From an uncultured Chitinophagaceae bacterium (GTDB taxonomy: Bacteria > Bacteroidota > Bacteroidia > Chitinophagales > Chitinophagaceae), in NCBI GenBank assembly GCA_964236235.1, contig CAXSDW010000003.1, positions 22,100 through 86,099 on the forward strand: a DNA stretch of 64,000 nucleotides, in the 5' to 3' direction. How positions within the stretch are numbered: position 1 is the first letter of the stretch; the number at the start of each line of letters is the position of its first letter. This document shows, piece by piece, positions 1,688 through 36,729 of this stretch. Under the pieces are notes generated by a model. The model was not told where the DNA came from and did no database searches. It saw only the letters and a list, made by a program, of their open reading frames with translations. Made by a program: the position numbers and the translations under genes.

Positions 1688-2677
1688 TTACTCATTTCCA
1701 AATTGTCTTAAACTTATTACAAAAATACTTCCTTGCGGTTGATTAGGTTGAACAGTTATAGTACCATCATGTTGTTCGATAATTTTTTTTGTAAGATATA
1801 ATCCAAGTCCTGTTCCTTTGGCTCCTTTGGTATGTACATTGCCAATGCGATAAAATTTTTGAAATATCTTTTCTTTTTCTTTCGCAGAAATGCCTTTTCC
1901 TTCATCTGCTATAAAGAGCTCTATTTTATTTTTTGTTGCATTTAATACTATCCTCACCTTGCTTTCACGCGGAGAATATTTTATAGCATTATCTAAAAGA
2001 TTATTTACCGCCATTTGAAGCAATAACCTGTCGCAGGCAACATAAATATCTTCCTGTATGTCTGATTCAAATTTCCTATCAGGAAATCTTATAATAAAAT
2101 CATGCGCACATTCTTTGGTTAAGCTCGTTAAATCAACCTGCTCCCTGGTTATTTTATATCCGCCGGCTTCAATCTGGCTGGCCAAAAGCATATTATTGCA
2201 CAGATCATTTAACCTGTTAGCTTCCTGTAATGTATTAGATAAAAGTTTTTGCTTTTGTTCATTTGTAAGCTGGTGTTTTTGCAGTGTTTCAAGATTTAGT
2301 TTAGTAACAGCAATTGGCGTTTTAAGTTCGTGTGTAAGTGCCATCATAAAATTTTGCTGCTGCTGCGATTGCCGGAATTGTCTTCTTACTACCCTAAAAA
2401 CGAATACTGCACCGGTTATTATCAGTAGTAAAAAAGTAATGCCTTCACTAAGGTATTGAACTGTCTTTCTTTTTTTTTCATTTTCAATTTTATATACCAG
2501 GTAAGCATAACCAGGCTGATCAGTCCTTAACTTTTGTAATTTATAGGTAACCATTTGGTTGTTCTGCATATTCAATAAAATAAACCAATAGATCAATGCA
2601 GCGATTATATAGGCTAATAAAAACCAGTAAACAAAGAAGATAGTACGCAGGCGTTTTACTTTAAAGATTCCGGGCAT
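1688..2677 (-). CDS. Membrane sensor histidine kinase paired with the OmpR regulator
   Basis: Two TM helices, H-box THELKTP, N-box NLLDNAIKYS, DEGKGI, GTGLGL. Confidence 0.92.
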   Translation of the reverse strand: MPGIFKVKRLRTIFFVYWFLLAYIIAALIYWFILLNMQNNQMVTYKLQKLRTDQPGYAYLVYKIENEKKRKTVQYLSEGITFLLLIITGAVFVFRVVRRQFRQSQQQQNFMMALTHELKTPIAVTKLNLETLQKHQLTNEQKQKLLSNTLQEANRLNDLCNNMLLASQIEAGGYKITREQVDLTSLTKECAHDFIIRFPDRKFESDIQEDIYVACDRLLLQMAVNNLLDNAIKYSPRESKVRIVLNATKNKIELFIADEGKGISAKEKEKIFQKFYRIGNVHTKGAKGTGLGLYLTKKIIEQHDGTITVQPNQPQGSIFVISLRQFGNE

Positions 2678-4170: not shown

Positions 4171-4751
4171 TTAGTATTTAGTTTAAGTTTTGAAGCAAGT
4201 GTCTTTAAAAAATGAAAAATAAAATCAACATAAATAGTTCCCAAAAATAATAAAGCCCGACTTTTTGTTGCCGGGCCTTGTTATATGGATGGGTTAGTAA
4301 GTACCGGGAAAAAATTTCCCTACACAATAATAAAAATAATTTTTTTTAACGTAAAATAATTTGCCTATTAATTTATCAACATTTTATTTTTTGTTGTGGA
4401 TAAGGACACTCGTTTTTAAAGTGCAATCATCCATTTATGTTATTAACATAAAATAAAAACGCTCACAGCATCCTTGTAATAAAAGTATGAGTATGCTGAA
4501 GCTCTCTATTCATAAGGGTTCCGGAGTTGCAGCAATATATTTAATCATTGCATTCATTTTTAATTGATGTAAATAAGATGTTGAAATGTTATCTCATTAA
4601 AGTAATCTTAAAATAAAAAATATTTTTTAACCTGTTATCAAAAGAAGGCGATCGATTTCTGATCTTACCAGTTTTTATTTTTTTAAGTTCAATGTTATCA
4701 TGGTTAACTATAATTATATTGGATGGTTACCTTTGATTCAAATACTTATTA
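4171..4751. other. Candidate replication origin (oriC)
   Basis: 580-bp AT-rich gap between divergent genes; perfect DnaA box TGTGGATAA 4395-4403; TTATCAACA 4373-4381; TTATTAACA 4440-4448; TTATCAAAA 4635-4643; GATC-containing T-rich tract ~4649-4685. Confidence 0.6.
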
Positions 4752-11081: not shown

Positions 11082-12941
11082 TTACCGGCCAAACATTTTA
11101 TCTAATTCATCTTTTTTAAATTCAAGATAAACAGGTTTGCCGTTTGCGGTGGAGTTGGGTGTTTCACAATTAAAAAGATCATCAGCCAATGCCTTCATTT
11201 CTTTTTGTGATAAAGTGATGCCTGATTTAACAGATTGCTGGCAGGCCATTGAACGCAAAAGTTTTTCACGCTTACTAAATTTAAGATCATTGCTAAAATG
11301 TTTGTACTGTTCCAGCATCTTATCAATAGTAACTTTTTCATTTCCCTGCACTACATCAGCAGGGCTTCCCTGTATCACGAATGTATTGCTGCCAAAGGGT
11401 TCTATAACGTATCCTAATAACTGAAGATCATTTAACAGCTCATTTAATAACAGGCAATCACCTGGCGGCAGTTCAATACTTGAGGGAAACAAACTTCTTT
11501 GGGTAGCTATAGGTTTTCCCTTTAATGCATTTGAAAATCGTTCATATAAAATTCTTTCATGGGCATTTTGCTGATGAATCACAATGAATCCTTTTTTATT
11601 TTGTGCAATAATAAAAGCATTGTGTACCTGAATGAGATCATCACTTATGTTTTTATTATCAGCAGCATTAAAGAAACCGGTCGTATTATGAGCATCAATA
11701 CTTTTTATTTCATTGCCGTTTTTTAATGCAGGTTCGGGCAATGACCAACGATCAGTTAATTCAGTCTTTCGTTCATCCCAACTAAGCAGATCACTTTTGT
11801 TTTCAATAAAATGCGCCTGGTGTTTTTGTGTAAAAGTTTTGTATAAAGATGAAGCAGTTGCTGCTGATCTTTTGTCTTGAGTAAATGGCTGGCTTACGGC
11901 TTCTGTTTGTTGAATAGTTACATCAAGATCAAAATCCAAAGTAGGCGTTATGCTAAATTGTGCCAATGCGTGTTTAACAGCAGATTGCACAAATGCGTAA
12001 ATAAGTTTCTCATCTTCAAATTTTATCTCCTGCTTTGTTGGGTGCACATTTATATCGAGCCGTGACGGATCAACATCAATAAATAATGCATACATGGGGA
12101 AGCTGTCTTTAGCAATCACATCATTAAAAGCATTCATTACTGCATGATTTAAATAAGCGCTCTTAATAAACCTGTTGTTCACAAAAAAGTATTGGTCGCC
12201 ACGGGTTTTTTTAGCAGTTTCGGGTTTACCAACAAATCCATAAACATTCATGTAATCAGTATCTTCAGTAACATGCACTAATTTTGCAGAATAACTGCTG
12301 CCAAGTATTTGAACAATGCGCTGTTTTAAAGTACCTTTTTCAAGATAAAAAACCTGTTGCCCGTTTGACGTAAGTGAAAAAAAAATATCAGGGAAAGCCA
12401 TTGCCACTCTTATAAATTCATCTATAATATGTTTTAATTCTGATGCATTACTTTTTAAGAAATTTCTTCGTGCCGGAACATTAAAAAATAAATTCTTCAT
12501 CGTGATAACAGTTCCCTGCTGTGCCGCCACAGGCTGTTGTATTTGTACGATACTATTTTCAATTTCAATACATGTTCCTACAATATCTTCAGCTTTTTTT
12601 GTTTTTAATTCAACCTGGGCTACGCCGGCAATGCTAGCCAATGCTTCTCCTCTAAAGCCCATTGTTTTTATGTGAAATAAGTCGTCTATATTTTTTATTT
12701 TAGAAGTAGCATGTCTCTCAAAGCACATACGGGCATCAGTTTCGCTCATTCCGTGGCCATTATCTATTACCTGCACAAGGCTTTTGCCGGCATCATTTAC
12801 TATAAGTTTTATTTCAGTAGCACCGGCATCAACTGCATTTTCAAGAAGTTCTTTAACGGCGCTTGCGGGTCGCTGAATTACCTCCCCTGCCGCAATTTGG
12901 TTAGCTATATTTTCCGGTAAAAGTTGTACAATATCAGGCAC
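11082..12941 (-). CDS. mutL: DNA mismatch repair protein MutL
   Basis: IAAGEVIQRPASAVKELLENAVDAGA, GFRGEALASI, DINVHPTKQEI, MACQQSVK; GTG start. Confidence 0.97.
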   Translation of the reverse strand: MPDIVQLLPENIANQIAAGEVIQRPASAVKELLENAVDAGATEIKLIVNDAGKSLVQVIDNGHGMSETDARMCFERHATSKIKNIDDLFHIKTMGFRGEALASIAGVAQVELKTKKAEDIVGTCIEIENSIVQIQQPVAAQQGTVITMKNLFFNVPARRNFLKSNASELKHIIDEFIRVAMAFPDIFFSLTSNGQQVFYLEKGTLKQRIVQILGSSYSAKLVHVTEDTDYMNVYGFVGKPETAKKTRGDQYFFVNNRFIKSAYLNHAVMNAFNDVIAKDSFPMYALFIDVDPSRLDINVHPTKQEIKFEDEKLIYAFVQSAVKHALAQFSITPTLDFDLDVTIQQTEAVSQPFTQDKRSAATASSLYKTFTQKHQAHFIENKSDLLSWDERKTELTDRWSLPEPALKNGNEIKSIDAHNTTGFFNAADNKNISDDLIQVHNAFIIAQNKKGFIVIHQQNAHERILYERFSNALKGKPIATQRSLFPSSIELPPGDCLLLNELLNDLQLLGYVIEPFGSNTFVIQGSPADVVQGNEKVTIDKMLEQYKHFSNDLKFSKREKLLRSMACQQSVKSGITLSQKEMKALADDLFNCETPNSTANGKPVYLEFKKDELDKMFGR

Positions 12942-25079: not shown

Positions 25080-27410
25080 ATGTGGCAACGGCTGGCAAAA
25101 TTTGTTTTACAATTCAGGCTGCCATTACTTATCATTTTATTTTGTATAACGTTGTTGATGGCTTACTTTGCCAGTAAAGTGCAATTGAGCTATGAATTTT
25201 CAAAGGCAATTCCTGTTGATAATCCAAAGTATAAAGAATACCTGTCTTTCAAGCAGAAGTTTGGTGATGATGGTAACATGTTGGTTATAGCAATTCAAAC
25301 AAACAAAATTTTCGGGCTTAATACTTTCAAAACCTTTTCCCAGCTTAATAACAACTTAAAAAAAGTGCCTCATGTAGAGAGTGTTTTAAGTATTACCTCT
25401 GCGATTAATCTTATAAAAAATGTTGAAACAGAAAAGCTGACTTCTACTCTTATTTTTCCGGTAGATATAAATACGCAGCAGCAGCTTGATAGCAGCAGAA
25501 AAGTTTTTTTTTCTCTTCCGTTTTACAAAACGCTTTTATATAATCCGGTAACAAACTCTTATTTAATCGGGGTTCGTATAAATAAGGATATGCTTAATTC
25601 TCCTGCAAGAACTGCCATTGTTAATGATATAATTAAGTTAACTGATGGGTTTTCAAAAGCCACAAATATTTCAACCTATATAAGCGGCCTTCCATTAATA
25701 AGAACACTTGTTGCAGAAAAAATTGCAAAAGAAATGCGCTTGTTTTTAATTGGTTCATTAATATTATACACAATCATTTTATTATTATTATTCCGGTCTG
25801 TAAGCACTACACTAATATCACTGACAGTTGTACTAACAGGTGTGGTGTGGAGCTTTGGAATCCTTTATTTATTTGGCTACAAAATAACTTTATTAAATGC
25901 TTTGATTCCGCCATTAGTAGTTGTTATTGGTATTCCAAACTGCATTTATTTTTTAAATAAATATCATTCAACTTATCGCATTAATAAAAATAAAAACCAG
26001 GCTTTGGTTGATATGGTAAGTAAGATGGGCATTGTCACCTTATTTTGCAATCTCACTGCTGCTATAGGTTTTGCAGTATTTGCTTTTACAAAAAGCGCCG
26101 TTTTAAAAGAGTTTGGAGCAGTGTCAGGAATAAGTATCATGATGATATTTTTCATATCATTCATCCTGTTACCTGCTGTATTAAGTTATCTTCCGGCGCC
26201 TTCACACACTCAAACTAAATATCTTGATAACAAATGGCTCACTAAATTGCTTTTACAATTAGAAAGCTGGGTGCTTAATTATAAGAAGTTTATTTATGCT
26301 ATCACATTGATTATTATTATTCTTTCTGTGATAGGAATTTTCCGCTTACAGAGTGAAGCGTTTATTGTAGATGATCTGCCTAAAACGGATAAAATTTATA
26401 CTGACCTGAAATTTTTTGAAAAGAATTTTAACGGGGTAATGCCACTTGAAATAGTTATAGATACTAAAAAGAAATACGGCCTTGCAGGTGCACGTGCATT
26501 ACCTGTTTTTGAAAAAATAGATTCGCTGTCGCAATACATTACAGCAGGTAAAGAAATGGCACGTCCGCTGTCAATTGCAGAAGGTTTAAAGTTTGCAAAG
26601 CAGGCTTTTTATGAAGGAGACACTGCAAATTATAGTTTGCCTAATTCATTTGACGGCGCTTTTGTTGGTGAATATTTAAAGCCTAAAAAAGATAGTAATG
26701 AGAAAGATGGCTTTACTAAATTACTTACATCATTTATGGATACTGAAAGGCAAAGCACAAGGATAAGTATGAATATGGTTGATGTAGGCACCAAAAAATT
26801 GCCGATCATTTTAAATAAAATCTCAGCACGGGCCAGCCAGTTATTTGACTCATCTAAATTTAATGTGAGGCTAACTGGCAGCAGCATTACCTTTTTAGAA
26901 GGCAGCCGTTTTATCATCAATGGCTTAAAGGAAAGTATTCTCTGGGCATTTTTACTGATCGCTTTATGCATGCTGTATCTATTTAAATCTGTTCAAATTC
27001 TTTTTTGTTCTCTTATTCCAAATGTGATTCCTCTAATTGTTACTGCCGGTATAATGGGCTGGGCTGGCATTAGGTTAAAACCTTCTACAGTACTGGTTTT
27101 CAGCGTGGCGTTAGGAATTGCAATTGATGTTACTATTCGCTTTTTGGTTAATTATAAGCAGGAATTTGCGAACAATAATAATAACGTTTTAAATACAGTA
27201 ACGCAAACAATAAAACACACTGGTCTTAGCATTTTATACACTTCAATGGTTTTAATAGTTGGATTTATTATTTTTTGTTTTAGTGAATTTGGCGGCACAC
27301 AAGCATTGGGTTGGCTTACTTCTGTTACGTTGTTTGTAGCAACTATTACAAATCTTATTTTGCTTCCGGCATTGCTTCTTTTAATAAACCAAAATACTTC
27401 TGGTAAATAA
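25080..27410 (+). CDS. MMPL/RND-like transporter
   Basis: Duplicated 6-TM halves, G.P...T, VVVIGIPN, ALGIAIDVTI. Confidence 0.85.
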   Translation: MWQRLAKFVLQFRLPLLIILFCITLLMAYFASKVQLSYEFSKAIPVDNPKYKEYLSFKQKFGDDGNMLVIAIQTNKIFGLNTFKTFSQLNNNLKKVPHVESVLSITSAINLIKNVETEKLTSTLIFPVDINTQQQLDSSRKVFFSLPFYKTLLYNPVTNSYLIGVRINKDMLNSPARTAIVNDIIKLTDGFSKATNISTYISGLPLIRTLVAEKIAKEMRLFLIGSLILYTIILLLLFRSVSTTLISLTVVLTGVVWSFGILYLFGYKITLLNALIPPLVVVIGIPNCIYFLNKYHSTYRINKNKNQALVDMVSKMGIVTLFCNLTAAIGFAVFAFTKSAVLKEFGAVSGISIMMIFFISFILLPAVLSYLPAPSHTQTKYLDNKWLTKLLLQLESWVLNYKKFIYAITLIIIILSVIGIFRLQSEAFIVDDLPKTDKIYTDLKFFEKNFNGVMPLEIVIDTKKKYGLAGARALPVFEKIDSLSQYITAGKEMARPLSIAEGLKFAKQAFYEGDTANYSLPNSFDGAFVGEYLKPKKDSNEKDGFTKLLTSFMDTERQSTRISMNMVDVGTKKLPIILNKISARASQLFDSSKFNVRLTGSSITFLEGSRFIINGLKESILWAFLLIALCMLYLFKSVQILFCSLIPNVIPLIVTAGIMGWAGIRLKPSTVLVFSVALGIAIDVTIRFLVNYKQEFANNNNNVLNTVTQTIKHTGLSILYTSMVLIVGFIIFCFSEFGGTQALGWLTSVTLFVATITNLILLPALLLLINQNTSGK

Positions 27411-27549: not shown

Positions 27550-28326
27550 ATGCGACCGATTTGGACAGGCGCTATAGGTTTTGGACTGGTAAACATCCCG
27601 GTTAAATTATATAGTGCAACACAATCAAGTAATCTTGATCTTGATATGCTCGATAAAAAGGATCATTCAAACATAAGATTTATGCGGGTGAATGAAAAAA
27701 CAGGCAAAGAAGTTACCTGGGAAAATATTGTAAAAGGATACAAAACTGATAATGATTATGTGATACTTGAGCCAAAAGATTTTGAGGCAGCAAGCGCAAA
27801 AAAAACAAAGACCATAGAGATTTCTGATTTTGTGAAAGAAGAAGAAATAAGCAGCATTTATTATGAAACGCCTTATTACGTTGAGCCCGATAAATCGGGA
27901 ACAAGAGCTTATGAATTATTAAGACAGGCATTACAAAAAACGGGTAAAATTGGTATATCAACATTTGTAATGAGAAGCAAAGAAAGCCTGGCAGTACTAA
28001 GAGCTACAAAGGATTTAATTATTTTGAACAAGATAAGATTTGAAGAAGAAATCCGGGATTTTAAAGACCTCGCATTACCAGAAAAAACTGATGTAAAACC
28101 TGCAGAACTTACAATGGCTGTTTCTCTTATAAACCAACTCACAGGTAAATTTGATATTTCTCAATATAAGGATACATACAATGCGGAACTATTAAAATTG
28201 ATACAGGCAAAATCCAAAGGTGAGAAGATTATAGCTCCTGAAATGAAAGTGGTTCACAGTAAAACAAAAGACCTGATGGCTCAGCTTAAAGCAAGCCTTG
28301 ATGTAAAACGTAAAAAAGCTTCGTAA
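27550..28326 (+). CDS. ku: NHEJ DNA end-binding protein Ku
   Basis: MRPIWTGAIGFGLVNIPVKLYSA, IYYETPYYV.P, AYELLRQAL, DLMAQLKASL. Confidence 0.96.
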   Translation: MRPIWTGAIGFGLVNIPVKLYSATQSSNLDLDMLDKKDHSNIRFMRVNEKTGKEVTWENIVKGYKTDNDYVILEPKDFEAASAKKTKTIEISDFVKEEEISSIYYETPYYVEPDKSGTRAYELLRQALQKTGKIGISTFVMRSKESLAVLRATKDLIILNKIRFEEEIRDFKDLALPEKTDVKPAELTMAVSLINQLTGKFDISQYKDTYNAELLKLIQAKSKGEKIIAPEMKVVHSKTKDLMAQLKASLDVKRKKAS

Positions 28327-28327
28327 T

Positions 28328-28933
28328 ATGGCTCTGACACTTTATAATAAAAAAAGAAATTTTAACGATACACCTGAGCCTTCAGGAAAGTTAACAAAGT
28401 CTGCTTCCAAATTATCTTTTGTAGTGCAACGCCACAAAGCCTCCCGTTTACATTATGATTTTAGATTGGAAATGGAAGGTGTCTTAAAAAGCTGGGCCGT
28501 TCCAAAAGGTCCATCTCTTAATCCGAAAGATAAGCGTTTGGCAATGATGGTAGAAGATCATCCTTATGATTATAAAGATTTCAGTGGCATAATACCTGAA
28601 GGAAATTACGGTGCAGGAATAGTGGAAATTTGGGACGAAGGTTATTATTCTGATCTGGAGAATTCTGAAAAGCCTGTCGCAGAAAAGAACTTGCTGGCTG
28701 GCTTAAAATCCGGGAATCTTAAAGTAAGATTATTTGGTAAAAAGCTTAAAGGCGAATTTGCTTTAGTTAAGCTAAAAGGTAAAGAAGAAAATACATGGTT
28801 ACTTATAAAGCATAATGACGAATATGCAGTTCACGAAGATTACGATAGTGAAAATGATACTCCGGATAACTCTCCCATAAATAAATGGCTTAAAGAAAAT
28901 AAGCAACCCGTTAAAAAAAAACTTCCTTCATAA
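28328..28933 (+). CDS. ligD: LigD 3'-phosphoesterase domain (probable N-terminal part of a recoded LigD)
   Basis: FVVQRHKASRLHYDFRLE, LKSWAVPKGPS.P, EDHP.DY, GNYGAG.V.IWD; ends at an A9 run. Confidence 0.93.
   Translation: MALTLYNKKRNFNDTPEPSGKLTKSASKLSFVVQRHKASRLHYDFRLEMEGVLKSWAVPKGPSLNPKDKRLAMMVEDHPYDYKDFSGIIPEGNYGAGIVEIWDEGYYSDLENSEKPVAEKNLLAGLKSGNLKVRLFGKKLKGEFALVKLKGKEENTWLLIKHNDEYAVHEDYDSENDTPDNSPINKWLKENKQPVKKKLPS
28913..28921 (+). other. A9 slippery run linking the two ligD ORFs in the -1 frame
   Basis: GTT AAA AAA AAA CTT; the -1 frame is open from 28915 and reads KKTSFITSVKQSRQLTSFIKPMLA. Confidence 0.6.
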
Positions 28934-28977
28934 CATCAGTAAAACAGAGCAGGCAACTTACCAGTTTTATCAAGCCG

Positions 28978-30837
28978 ATGCTGGCAAAGGAAACCAAGGA
29001 AGTTTTTGATGACGATAAATGGCTGTTCGAAATTAAATGGGACGGTTACAGGGCTATTTCTGAAATTGAAAATGGTAACGTCAGGCTCTATTCACGCAAT
29101 GGAATTACGTTCGAAAACTCCTATCCTGTTGTTGCCAGAGAATTAAAAAATATAAAAGAGAATTGTGTGCTGGATGGTGAGATAGTTGTGCTTAATGATG
29201 AAGGCCATCCTGAATTTCAGCTTTTGCAGCATTATGAAGATAATACACACCGGCCCATCCAATACTGTGTATTTGACCTGTTATCACTTAATGGAAATGA
29301 TACCTGCTCTTTGGCTTTAGTAGAAAGAAAGGAATTGCTGAAAAGGATAATTGAAAAGAATGATGTAATAAAATATTCTGATCACATTTTTGGAACAGGA
29401 AAATCATTTTTTGAAGTAACAAAAGAGCAAGGCCTTGAAGGAATAATGGCAAAAAAAAGCGACAGCCAATATTACAAAGGAAGACGAACCAGTGAATGGC
29501 TGAAAATAAAACACAATCAAACACAGGAAGCCATCATAGCAGGATACACATCACCTGGCGGAGGCAGAAAATATTTTGGCGCTTTGGTGTTGGCTATAAA
29601 AGATGGAAATAAACTTAAGTATATTGGTCATACAGGCTCAGGTTTTAATAACAAATCATTAAAAGAAATGTATGAAACCTTGCAGCCATTGGTGCAGGAA
29701 GAATCTCCATTTGATGAGAAGGTAAAAACCAATATGCCGGTAACATGGGTGAAACCTAAGCTCGTTTGCGAAATCAAATTCACTGAAGTAACTAATGATG
29801 GCAAATTAAGACACCCAATATTTCTTCATTTAAGAGAAGACAAATCAGTTAAAGAAGTAACCATGGCAAATACAAAAGCAATCACAAAATCACAGTCAGA
29901 AAAAGAAAAAGGTGATGAAAAAAATGATAAATCAAAAGTTTACACATTTGGAAAAATAAAAGTTGCTACATCAAACCCAACTAAAATTTATTTTCCTGAT
30001 GATGGAGTTACTAAAGGCGATGTAATTGAATATTATATTTCTATGAGTGAGTATATCTTACCTTATTTAAAAGGCCGTCCGGAATCACTTTTAAGAAACC
30101 CGAATGGCATAAATGCCAAAGGTTTTTTTCATAAAGATGCAGGAGAAGAAGCGCCGTCTTTTGTAAAAAGTAAAAAGGTACATTCTGATTCCGGGAACAA
30201 AGACATTGACTATATACTTTGTGATAACCAGGCAACACTTACTTACCTTAATAACCTTGGTTGCATCGAGATTAATCCATGGCATTCAACTGTTGAAGCG
30301 CTTGATTATCCTGATTATCTCATTATTGATATTGATCCGTCTGACCAAAATACTTTTGAGCAGGTGATAGAAGCAGCCAATGTTGTTAAACAGGTTTTAG
30401 ATAAAGCCGGCGCTGCTGCTTATTGTAAAACCTCCGGAGCATCCGGCTTACACATATATGTACCTACTGCAAAAAAATATACGTATGACCAGGTGAAAGA
30501 TTTTGCTTACCTCGTGTGCATGCTGGCTAATGAGCAGCTTCCTGAGTTTACCACATTGGAAAGAAATTTACAGAAAAGAGGGAACCGGCATATATACATG
30601 GATTATCTGCAAAACAGGAGAGGTCAAACTATTGCTTCGGTTTATAGCCTTAGGCCAAAAGCAGGTGCAACGGTGTCTACCCCGCTATTATGGAAAGAAG
30701 TTAAGAGTGGGTTATCTCCTAAAAACTTTAATATAAAAAATACTTTAGAAAGGGTAAAAAAGACCGGAGATATGTTTAAAGATATTTTGGGAAAGGGAAT
30801 AGACCTTAATAAATGCCTTAAGAAACTTGATGGTTAA
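28978..30837 (+). CDS. ligD: LigD ATP-dependent ligase plus primase-polymerase domains
   Basis: WLFEIKWDGYRA (motif I), EGIMAKK, LRHP, IIDIDP, KTSGASGLHI, DYLQN, TPL.W.EV. Confidence 0.95.
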   Translation: MLAKETKEVFDDDKWLFEIKWDGYRAISEIENGNVRLYSRNGITFENSYPVVARELKNIKENCVLDGEIVVLNDEGHPEFQLLQHYEDNTHRPIQYCVFDLLSLNGNDTCSLALVERKELLKRIIEKNDVIKYSDHIFGTGKSFFEVTKEQGLEGIMAKKSDSQYYKGRRTSEWLKIKHNQTQEAIIAGYTSPGGGRKYFGALVLAIKDGNKLKYIGHTGSGFNNKSLKEMYETLQPLVQEESPFDEKVKTNMPVTWVKPKLVCEIKFTEVTNDGKLRHPIFLHLREDKSVKEVTMANTKAITKSQSEKEKGDEKNDKSKVYTFGKIKVATSNPTKIYFPDDGVTKGDVIEYYISMSEYILPYLKGRPESLLRNPNGINAKGFFHKDAGEEAPSFVKSKKVHSDSGNKDIDYILCDNQATLTYLNNLGCIEINPWHSTVEALDYPDYLIIDIDPSDQNTFEQVIEAANVVKQVLDKAGAAAYCKTSGASGLHIYVPTAKKYTYDQVKDFAYLVCMLANEQLPEFTTLERNLQKRGNRHIYMDYLQNRRGQTIASVYSLRPKAGATVSTPLLWKEVKSGLSPKNFNIKNTLERVKKTGDMFKDILGKGIDLNKCLKKLDG

Positions 30838-36681: not shown

Positions 36682-36729
36682 GTTAAAAAAAGATTTAGGT
36701 TAAAAAAAAATTTATACGGTTTTAAATAT

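Follow-up and report, generated by a model that had tools for sequence, protein, structure and literature searches.

A poly-A recoding site in ligD of Bacteroidota probably yields an end-cleaning enzyme and a full three-domain ligase from one gene

To our knowledge, few non-mobile bacterial genes depend on transcriptional slippage or ribosomal frameshifting, among them dnaX, prfB and some secretion or pilus genes. The systems closest to the one described here are Thermus thermophilus dnaX, in which slippage on nine A's underlies the tau and gamma products, and the two-ORF dnaX of Chlorobi, which carries an A10 run (PMC5009743; PMC3711429). In Thermus, dnaX mRNAs are found with one additional A or several, in diminishing proportion, and nine A/T residues support efficient slippage in vivo (PMC5009743). 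In Shigella, spa13 slips with an efficiency of ~25–30% (PMC5009743), and for poly(A) frameshifts in endosymbionts slippage has been reported to correct 12–50% of transcripts (cited in PMC5009743). Here we describe a comparable arrangement in ligD, the gene for the nonhomologous end joining (NHEJ) ligase LigD, found in a 64,000-nucleotide stretch of DNA from an uncultured Chitinophagaceae bacterium (contig CAXSDW010000003.1), hereafter the window.

The ku stop codon of the window lies one base before the start codon of the next ORF (TAA T ATG), indicating that ku and ligD form one operon-like unit (Table 1). This next ORF encodes the LigD 3′-phosphoesterase (PE) domain and terminates in GTT AAA AAA AAA CTT CCT TCA TAA. 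The ORF that follows, LIG-POL, contains the Pfam domains DNA_ligase_A_M, DNA_ligase_A_C and LigD_Prim-Pol (E = 3.9e-84), which correspond to the adenylation, OB and primase-polymerase domains. The adenylation domain harbors the KxDG motif, as KWDG, and LIG-POL aligns with the M. tuberculosis LigD ligase 1VS0 (E = 7e-52). The locus thus has the composition of a LigD locus, with PE, LIG (KxDG and OB) and Prim-Pol domains and an adjacent ku gene.

Table 1 Coordinates of the features of the ku–ligD region, in window positions
Feature	Position	Strand	Description
ku gene	27550..28326	+	258 aa; Pfam Ku E = 8e-50
PE ORF (LigD 3′-phosphoesterase domain, zero frame)	28328..28933	+	201 aa, ATG at 28328; Pfam LigD_N E = 3.6e-42 over 28328-28930
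TAA in the −1 (LIG) frame	28912..28914	+	overlaps the first two A's of the run
A9 run, candidate slip site	28913..28921	+	zero-frame AAA AAA AAA, Lys195-197
Trans-frame linker	28915..28977	+	21 LIG-frame codons before the Met; reads KKTSFITSVKQSRQLTSFIKP; no ATG/GTG/TTG
Zero-frame stop TAA	28931..28933	+	3 sense codons past the A9 run
LIG-POL ORF (ORF-finder call)	28978..30837	+	619 aa when started at the Met in PMLA, a conserved motif
Conceptual recoded ligD	28328..30837	+	836-aa PE-LIG-POL, continuous once an A is added to the run

A sequence-only reading of the window had proposed that the PE ORF ends on an A9 run, that the ligase-polymerase ORF lies in the −1 frame and is open back to 28915, and that one added A would create an 836-aa PE-LIG-POL protein. 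Direct reading of the DNA agreed with the first two proposals and insertion of an A in silico with the third; the junction peptide of the recoded product reads ...KQPVKKKTSFITSVK. At the PE/LIG junction the two frames overlap by 19 nt, with the A9 run inside the overlap. Because the −1-frame TAA closes the LIG frame upstream, a productive shift would be confined to positions 28915-28930. The trans-frame linker contains the conserved (K/R)(K)L..FIKP residues that form the N-terminus of the ligase domain.

We compared 90 related Bacteroidota loci in which PE adjoins LIG. In 48 of these the gene is split: LIG is in the −1 frame, and so requires one additional A, in 41 loci, is in the +1 frame in 6 and follows a same-frame stop in 1. 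The excess of the −1 over the +1 frame among split loci (41 versus 6) is significant (binomial p = 2e-7). An A9 (28 loci) or A10 (12 loci) run, and never a shorter one, is present in 40 of the 41 loci split in the −1 frame, where it falls within a frame overlap of 13–118 nt, and the zero-frame stop follows the run at a median of 5 codons across orthologues. Carriers include cultured strains of Chryseobacterium, Epilithonimonas and Flavobacterium, with C. aquaticum, C. formosense DSM 17452, C. shigense DSM 17126 and Epilithonimonas pallida DSM 18015 among them, and the site is found in at least the Chitinophagales and Flavobacteriales, among soil and water bacteria. The recurrence of the same −1 break at an A9/A10 run in orthologous loci from at least two orders supports the recoding site, working by either transcriptional slippage or a −1 frameshift, that had been proposed from the window.

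In an alignment of 7 relatives, the A9 run and the ATG region are the sole stretches with 100% conservation. The out-of-frame state, with its run intact, is fixed in an 11-species Chryseobacterium clade and in a 5-species sister clade; over the whole tree, split and fused states are interleaved in about ten blocks. The flanks of locus L010 (A11, fused) are homologous to those of L002 (A10, split), indicating that one additional A restores the frame. The +1-configuration variants include A12 and A14 runs (L045 and L095), and each of the three split loci that contain no run (L005, L022 and L023) has its own ATG upstream of the motif. A point that goes beyond the sequence-only reading is that the long A-run is also retained, in frame, by many orthologues without a break (A9–A11 in 26 of 42). 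In these fused genes the run may do something other than restore a frame, or may have arisen by mutation in a linker rich in Lys and biased toward AT.

The LIG-frame sequence upstream of the annotated ATG had been suggested to encode conserved ligase residues, and codon-position conservation in the 41 split loci agrees. All 41 have a CCN codon directly before the Met (third-base entropy 1.98), and upstream of this codon I/V, K, F, L and KK are conserved. Substitutions were analyzed in the all-split Chryseobacterium clade, over the 25 codons that separate the PE stop from the Met. The variable sites are distributed 8/7/23 by codon position, and the ratio of synonymous to non-synonymous codon differences is 128:108 in the LIG frame versus 11:206 and 27:190 in the other frames. 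Stop codons number 0 in the LIG frame compared to 8 and 20 in the other two. ATG, GTG or TTG codons occur in the linker of only 10 of the 41 split loci, at non-conserved positions. Hence, the linker evolves as LIG-frame coding sequence, usually without a start codon, which argues that it is translated by read-in from PE. The LIG frame, which has this coding signature and usually lacks its own initiation codon, appears to be translated as a continuation of PE, and internal initiation at the PMLA Met may be an additional source of LIG-POL. Comparison with orthologues, which could have been uninterrupted or devoid of the A-run, therefore favors recoding, with the linker under purifying selection in the LIG frame.

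Long A-runs are rare in these genomes. The long ORFs flanking related loci (297.5 kb) contain 7 runs of A9 or longer, and the chance expectation of such a run is ~0.006 per 250-nt linker, so that its presence in 40 of 41 split orthologues exceeds chance. Although AAA accounts for 77% of Lys codons, KKK is encoded as pure A9 in only 5 of 62 cases in flanking genes, versus 18 of 43 in fused linkers (Fisher p = 7e-5). At the K-rich C-termini of stand-alone PE genes, which have no LIG downstream, a run of A9 or longer was found in 0 of 11. Judged from these sequence comparisons, the run and the frame arrangement are conserved in orthologues beyond neutral drift. We also considered the run as a mere by-product of a Lys-rich linker, an idea that is weakened by the AAG-interrupted KKK codons of ordinary genes and stand-alone PE tails; for the in-frame cases, such an origin of the run may still apply.

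RNA and DNA run lengths were compared in assembled, low-depth contigs of a Chryseobacterium aquaticum-type locus, which belongs to a different species than the window; the RNA contigs were set against DNA runs that may come from other strains. Contigs from RNA runs showed A9 in 5 runs, A10 in 2 and A11 in 1, and in 2 runs the contig breaks at the tract; all length variants were insertions. In DNA runs, which comprise isolates and gut, wastewater, hot-spring and sludge metagenomes, the contigs showed A9 in 11 of 12 and A10 in 1 (X16, otherwise identical in sequence). The contrast gives a one-sided Fisher p = 0.15, and p = 0.04 only when contig breaks are counted. The run-length heterogeneity of the RNA assemblies is thus suggestive but not significant, and some of the RNA variants could stem from slippage of reverse transcriptase or PCR or from internal priming by oligo-dT. 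In the 2026 raw-read RNA runs X43-X45, which bear the same species label as the Chryseobacterium-locus runs, 0 reads mapped. A search of a junction-spanning peptide against a protein database returned mostly short fragments, and most close matches were on the LIG side only.

We consider it somewhat probable that ligD is one gene recoded by programmed transcriptional slippage to give a short PE and a full LigD. Standard transcription and translation would produce the 201-aa phosphoesterase, which terminates three codons past the A9 run. RNA polymerase would sometimes slip backwards on the nine A:T pairs and add one A; on the resulting A10 transcripts, a fraction of the total, ribosomes would continue from PE via a linker of 19 residues into the ligase and polymerase, resulting in the 836-aa LigD. 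Orthologues with in-frame runs could operate in the opposite mode, with full-length protein as the default and slippage leading to a truncated PE, as in Thermus dnaX. At the place where the frames must be joined there is a homopolymeric A/T run of at least about 9, as slippage demands. The absence of a conserved downstream RNA structure also speaks for slippage. That the run is never shorter than 9 fits the 9–10 bp RNA:DNA hybrid better than the 7-nt ribosomal heptamer, and the extra-A pattern of Thermus dnaX matches the preference for the configuration that needs one additional A at ligD. We infer that transcription is where the shift mostly takes place, that both products have a function and that their ratio is set by the site.

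Programmed −1 ribosomal frameshifting, in which a fraction of the ribosomes, their P and A sites occupied by tRNA-Lys, move back one base on A_AAA_AAA, would generate the same products from an mRNA that stays A9. It is the main rival, and we regard it as fairly unlikely. The comparative data fit the transcriptional and ribosomal routes alike, including the evidence for a trans-frame product: each of the three observed run phases offers a zero-frame A_AAA_AAA heptamer, the needed frame is −1 in 41 of 47 loci and the close zero-frame stop resembles that of many frameshift sites. However, the run is always at least 9 although 7 would do, the +1-configuration variants A12 and A14 are beyond rescue by a −1 shift, and the RNA assemblies include A10 and A11 forms. 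Moreover, no conserved stem-loop or pseudoknot was found downstream: RNAalifold on 7 relatives returned 3 pairs with no covariation 3′ of the run, and the single-sequence fold has z = -1.54. Bacteroidota make little use of Shine-Dalgarno pairing, and an SD-type stimulator is thus unlikely in this phylum. The sequence-only reading had named a homopolymer assembly error as the main alternative, with a true A10 genome and an ordinary uninterrupted ligD. The window does come from a metagenome assembly of modest depth (13x). However, the Logan contig of run X1, a lichen metagenome that is the only public run containing the window's sequence and was examined as an assembled contig, is an independent assembly and shows the same A9 at a word depth of 13. 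A9 and the frame are shared by the nearest relatives whose spacing is identical (L004, L012, L013, L014 and L021), and the configuration recurs in many isolate genomes. Error is excluded by the independent isolate genomes and by the 11 DNA runs with A9 in one species; it is rejected on comparative grounds, and we give it hardly any credence for the window itself.

The two remaining explanations accept the break as real. The poly-A tract of the Lys-rich linker could be a mutational hot spot where single-base deletions have split the gene again and again and are tolerated, with non-programmed polymerase infidelity providing partial rescue and neither a selected ratio nor a regulatory role, or PE and LIG-POL could work as separate proteins, with LIG-POL made from the PMLA Met; taken as one, these readings seem unlikely to us. 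In their favor, LigD domains are known to function in trans, and there are PE genes that stand alone. The interleaved split and fused states, run lengths that vary from A9 to A14 among relatives and the presence of the same run in fused orthologues all suit a tolerated mutation, for which endosymbionts provide a precedent of poly(A) rescue (PMC5009743). Such tolerance is harder to reconcile with free-living bacteria of large population size that otherwise purge A9 from their genes, with clades of 11 and 5 species in which the out-of-frame state is fixed and the run intact, and with run-less loci that acquired their own upstream ATG. A Met-initiated LIG-POL, in turn, would require neither the LIG-frame amino-acid selection on the linker nor its lack of a start codon. 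Alternatively, slipped-strand mispairing at the DNA level could switch the gene off and on, with A9 giving PE alone and A10 the full LigD, leading to heritable on/off variation of end joining in subpopulations. A homopolymer at the frame junction, the single A10 contig (X16) among the 12 C. aquaticum-type DNA runs and the tract-length difference between L010 and L002 are as phase variation would have them. But A9 was found in all other independent DNA runs, the same two clades are entirely out of frame where a switching tract should show both states, and A11, the in-frame length between A10 and A12, is absent from the Epilithonimonas-type clade. Both tract states are therefore not common among strains; the one A10 contig leaves room for switching at low frequency, and overall we judge phase variation quite improbable.

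If the gene is recoded as we propose, a conserved site in a core NHEJ enzyme across a phylum would add a repair pathway to the recoded genes. It suggests a deliberate excess of free 3′-phosphoesterase over ligase-polymerase, an idea that bears on how DNA ends are cleaned before joining. More tentatively, and with considerable doubt, the poly-A tract might serve as a tunable end-joining rheostat in Bacteroidota, one that evolution would have flipped repeatedly between "mostly PE" (out of frame) and "mostly full-length" (in frame). Since the frequency of slippage tracks NTP supply and the kinetics of elongation, slow-growing or stationary cells would be expected to have a larger share of full-length LigD. 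Such cells hold a single chromosome copy and have the greatest need of NHEJ. The gene-expression rules of Bacteroidota differ from those of E. coli, and the locus is a natural system in which RNA polymerase slippage could be measured for this phylum. There is also a consequence for annotation, as these loci are now called as two genes or risk a pseudogene label, and surveys of NHEJ architecture would misjudge them.

The literature that could be searched contained no paper joining LigD with transcriptional slippage. A 2020 survey of NHEJ makes no mention of recoding or frameshifts (PMC7719229), the accessible parts of the GeneTack survey text and supplements contain no LigD cluster, the word "ligase" is absent from a 2016 recoding review, and matches for slippage in Bacteroidetes concern endosymbionts.

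Relative to canonical PE-LIG-POL LigD of the Pseudomonas aeruginosa type, the recoded protein agrees in domain order and in having Ku as its partner, but the canonical form is encoded by one plain ORF; the PE-only product resembles the stand-alone LigD-like PE proteins of this phylum. The E. coli dnaX and IS3-family transposase sites, with −1 frameshifting on A_AAA_AAG or A_AAA_AAA, likewise use a lysine heptamer to join domains or ORFs and have a zero-frame stop just downstream. However, for these sites 7 nt suffice, and they are equipped with a downstream stem-loop or pseudoknot and often an upstream SD-like element, in contrast to the tract of at least 9 without conserved structure at LigD. 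Insect endosymbionts such as Buchnera and Blochmannia also have genes that are out of frame at long A runs (PMC5009743), but their genomes are degenerating under weak selection and contain many such tracts, whereas the LigD tract is exceptional and conserved across genera. In Shigella, slippage at A/T runs in spa13, spa33, mxiA and mxiE is likewise cellular and non-transposon and gives an extended or truncated product (PMC5009743); by contrast to ligD, these type III secretion genes are plasmid-borne, serve virulence and are confined to one genus.

The likeness is greatest to the Thermus and Chlorobi dnaX genes. Like them, ligD is chromosomal, belongs to the housekeeping or repair genes and has an A9–A10 run at a domain boundary, a short and a long product (for ligD as proposed here), nearby stops in other frames and no stimulatory RNA structure, and either system is arranged in frame in some taxa and out of frame in others. 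They differ in that LigD is an NHEJ ligase and dnaX encodes a clamp loader, whose tau/gamma stoichiometric rationale has as yet no LigD counterpart, and in that slippage at ligD is deduced from comparative data and assembled RNA contigs.

The ligD gene of the window is divided between an ORF for the 3′-phosphoesterase domain (PE) and a second ORF carrying the ligase (LIG) and primase-polymerase (POL) domains (Table). Direct reading confirmed this arrangement, described in the sequence-only reading with a proposal of slippage or -1 frameshifting at the A9 run, and in silico insertion upheld its predicted PE-LIG-POL product: conceptual translation with one A added to A9 gives an uninterrupted 836-aa protein. 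The LIG frame is open from 28915, and KKTSFITSVKQSRQLTSFIKP precedes the LIG-POL Met. The ku stop codon lies one base 5′ of the PE start (TAA T ATG, 28324-28330), a spacing that suggests translational coupling of ku and ligD within one operon. Four further A9/T9 runs occur in the 64-kb window.

Table. The ligD locus and further A9/T9 runs in the window
Feature	Position	Strand	Description
PE ORF	ATG 28328 to TAA 28931-28933	+	201 aa; Pfam LigD_N
A9 run	28913-28921	+	within PE 3′ end GTT AAA AAA AAA CTT CCT TCA TAA
LIG-POL ORF	ATG 28978 to 30837	+	619 aa, -1 frame; Pfam DNA_ligase_A_M, DNA_ligase_A_C, LigD_Prim-Pol
-1-frame TAA closing LIG frame	28912-28914	+	overlaps start of A9 run
Further run	2470-2478	-	A9 straight after ATG (ATG AAA AAA AAA GAA), opening a 333-codon open frame
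Further run	12377-12385		within a minus-strand open frame of 628 codons
Further run	25504-25512		in-frame T9 within membrane-protein ORF 25080-27410 (776 aa)
Further run	36702-36710		outside all long open frames

Two scans of one-genome-per-species collections, queried with PE proteins, identified 102 distinct loci in addition to the window; in 90 loci, window included, PE adjoins a ligase N-terminus. Classified by tblastn frames and stop-to-stop ORFs, these comprise 42 uninterrupted (fused) loci, 41 split loci with LIG in the -1 frame, which one added base restores, six split with LIG in +1, and one locus with a same-frame stop. The imbalance of -1 over +1 gives a binomial p of 2e-7, where locus counts are not phylogenetically independent events and MAG-derived loci may hold errors of their own (PE of L017, from a long-read MAG, contains an additional frameshift). 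The A-run and frame break are widely shared, bearing out the earlier proposal: of the 41 split(-1) loci, 28 hold an A9 and 12 an A10, 40 in all, within the 13-118 nt where both frames are open, and no run there falls below nine. Cultured, independently sequenced carriers of the split form include Chryseobacterium formosense, C. aquaticum, C. defluvii, C. rhizoplanae, C. herbae, C. gossypii, C. shigense, C. artocarpi, Chryseobacterium sp. Leaf394, Epilithonimonas pallida and Flavobacterium humi, joined by many Chitinophagaceae MAGs. In tree order, split and fused loci alternate in ~10 blocks, the position of the run in the linker varies from residue 189 to 266, and in two clades (11-species Chryseobacterium, 5-species Epilithonimonas-type) every member is out of frame and has kept an intact run. 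Homopolymer assembly error, the main alternative in the sequence-only reading, has a vanishingly small probability and can be ruled out, given the split A-run in cultured strains and an independently built contig, also A9 (word depth 13), from a lichen metagenome, the only public run containing the window's junction.

Several loci have peculiarities of their own. At the C. aquaticum locus (L031:4566-4597), the frame overlap holds one A9 run at 4566 and another at 4589; the latter is interrupted in several sister species. Runs of A12 (L045:1473-1484) and A14 (L095:3570-3583) accompany LIG in the +1 frame; the siblings of L045 have A10 with LIG in -1, and A11, the length that would be in frame, was not seen among them. 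Bacteroidota-type LigD (PE 63-70% identical) also appears in MAGs labelled Akkermansia, Methylobacter and Syntrophothermus (L019, L020, L027), likely through binning contamination.

Fused genes also retain the run, with A9-A11 in the PE-LIG region of 26 of the 42, although in one (L147) it falls in the PE domain rather than the linker. Since fused L010 (A11) and split L002 (A10) have homologous flanks, one extra A restores the frame. Stops follow in both other frames of fused genes at a median of 5 codons past the run, and slippage there would therefore yield a PE-only product; the fused arrangement would thus be the mirror image of the split one. The linker of fused L056 contains three A9 runs inside 35 nt (2667-2701; AKKKPAKKNAKKK).

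Such runs are rare elsewhere in these genomes. Long ORFs flanking loci L001-L080 (297.5 kb) use AAA for 77% of Lys codons but encode KKK as pure A9 in only 5 of 62 cases, against 46% expected from codon usage, indicating that these genomes avoid A9 runs. This avoidance is indirect evidence that A9 may be slip-prone in these bacteria. The flanking ORFs hold seven runs of A9 or longer, or ~0.006 expected per 250-nt linker, whereas 18 of the 43 KKK in fused linkers are pure A9 (Fisher p=7e-5). Likewise, such runs occur in 66 of 83 junction-bearing loci and in none of 11 Lys-rich tails of stand-alone PE genes without a downstream ligase (p=3e-7). Each of the three split loci without a run (L005, L022, L023) has an ATG of its own 5′ of the conserved ligase N-terminal motif.

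The substitution pattern of the linker is that of sequence translated in frame with the ligase. Across the 41 split loci, mean entropies by codon position are 1.11, 0.82 and 1.58; I/V -3, K -2, F -4, L -7 and KK -8/-9 are conserved, and the codon preceding Met is always CCN with a fully randomised third base (entropy 1.98). The motif recurs in fused orthologues and aligns with the adenylation-domain start of solved ligases, in Mtb LigD from KPMLA and in archaeal ligases from ~10 residues further upstream, in agreement with the earlier claim that conserved residues lie upstream of the annotated ATG. In the all-split Chryseobacterium clade, the 25 codons between PE stop and Met, intergenic under a two-gene model, have 8/7/23 variable sites by codon position, a synonymous:non-synonymous ratio of 128:108 in the LIG frame versus 11:206 and 27:190 in the others, and no stops versus 8 and 20; L032 and L033 encode the same 25-residue peptide with third bases differing at many sites. 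Between frame opening and Met, ATG, GTG or TTG occurs at non-conserved positions in 10 of 41 split loci and nowhere in the window. Given this coding signature and the lack of a conserved start, these residues can be made only via entry from the PE frame.

Run lengths in DNA and RNA were compared in assembled contigs, not reads, at the C. aquaticum-type locus (L031, run 4566-4574). Contigs of 11 independent DNA runs (isolate-associated and gut, wastewater, hot-spring and sludge metagenomes) span it as A9, and one low-depth groundwater metagenome has A10. Among RNA libraries, five have A9 (X31, X32, X33, X36, X38), X30 and X37 (random-primed metatranscriptome) have A10 and X41 has A11, while contigs of X28 and X29 end exactly at the run; X37 is identical in SNPs to its A9 sister sample X33. 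The contrast between RNA and DNA is a hint that falls short of significance (one-sided p=0.15, or p=0.04 when contig breaks are counted). All variants are insertions, the direction reported for RNA polymerase slippage on Thermus dnaX (PMC5009743). Oligo-dT internal priming, RT/PCR slippage or strain polymorphism are possible sources of the RNA variants. Contig depth also falls across the run (L031:4001-5400; X28 52 to 21, X29 45 to 16, X38 25 to 2.4). Oligo-dT internal priming there could account for the fall, as could polarity or decay affecting LIG-POL where unslipped transcripts leave it untranslated.

Together, the comparative data indicate that recoding of some kind probably occurs at the ligD A-run, and on balance we lean towards mainly transcriptional slippage, in which RNA polymerase would slip on the run and add one A, joining PE to the LIG frame; we infer the efficiency and function of the site. 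That ribosomes shifting -1 on A_AAA_AAA are mainly responsible is unlikely, since the run is always at least nine (the hybrid length) where seven suffice for ribosomes, its phase and flanking bases vary freely, and a search for conserved downstream RNA structure at the junction found none. Polymerase slippage is further favoured because the commonest split configuration needs one extra A, the A12/A14 +1 variants are rescued only by a change in run length, and A10 and A11 RNA contigs exist. Ribosomal -1 slippage may nevertheless contribute alongside.

Slightly less probable still is that the frameshift is merely tolerated or that PE and LIG-POL are separate genes; simple pseudogenisation or two independent genes are hard to square with the frame bias, run retention, linker coding signature and missing start codon. 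Phase variation of the run in DNA, for which the low-frequency A10 allele speaks, we consider quite improbable, as clades fixed out of frame and A9 in 11 of 12 DNA runs do not fit a rapid switch.

No report of recoding in LigD was found in the literature searched, and transcriptional slippage here would thus place a known mechanism in a new pathway, in a phylum without prior description. The closest analogue is dnaX, in which Thermus uses an in-frame A9 to make a short product by slippage and Chlorobi have two ORFs with A10 (PMC3711429, PMC5009743); the fused and split LigD loci mirror both arrangements.
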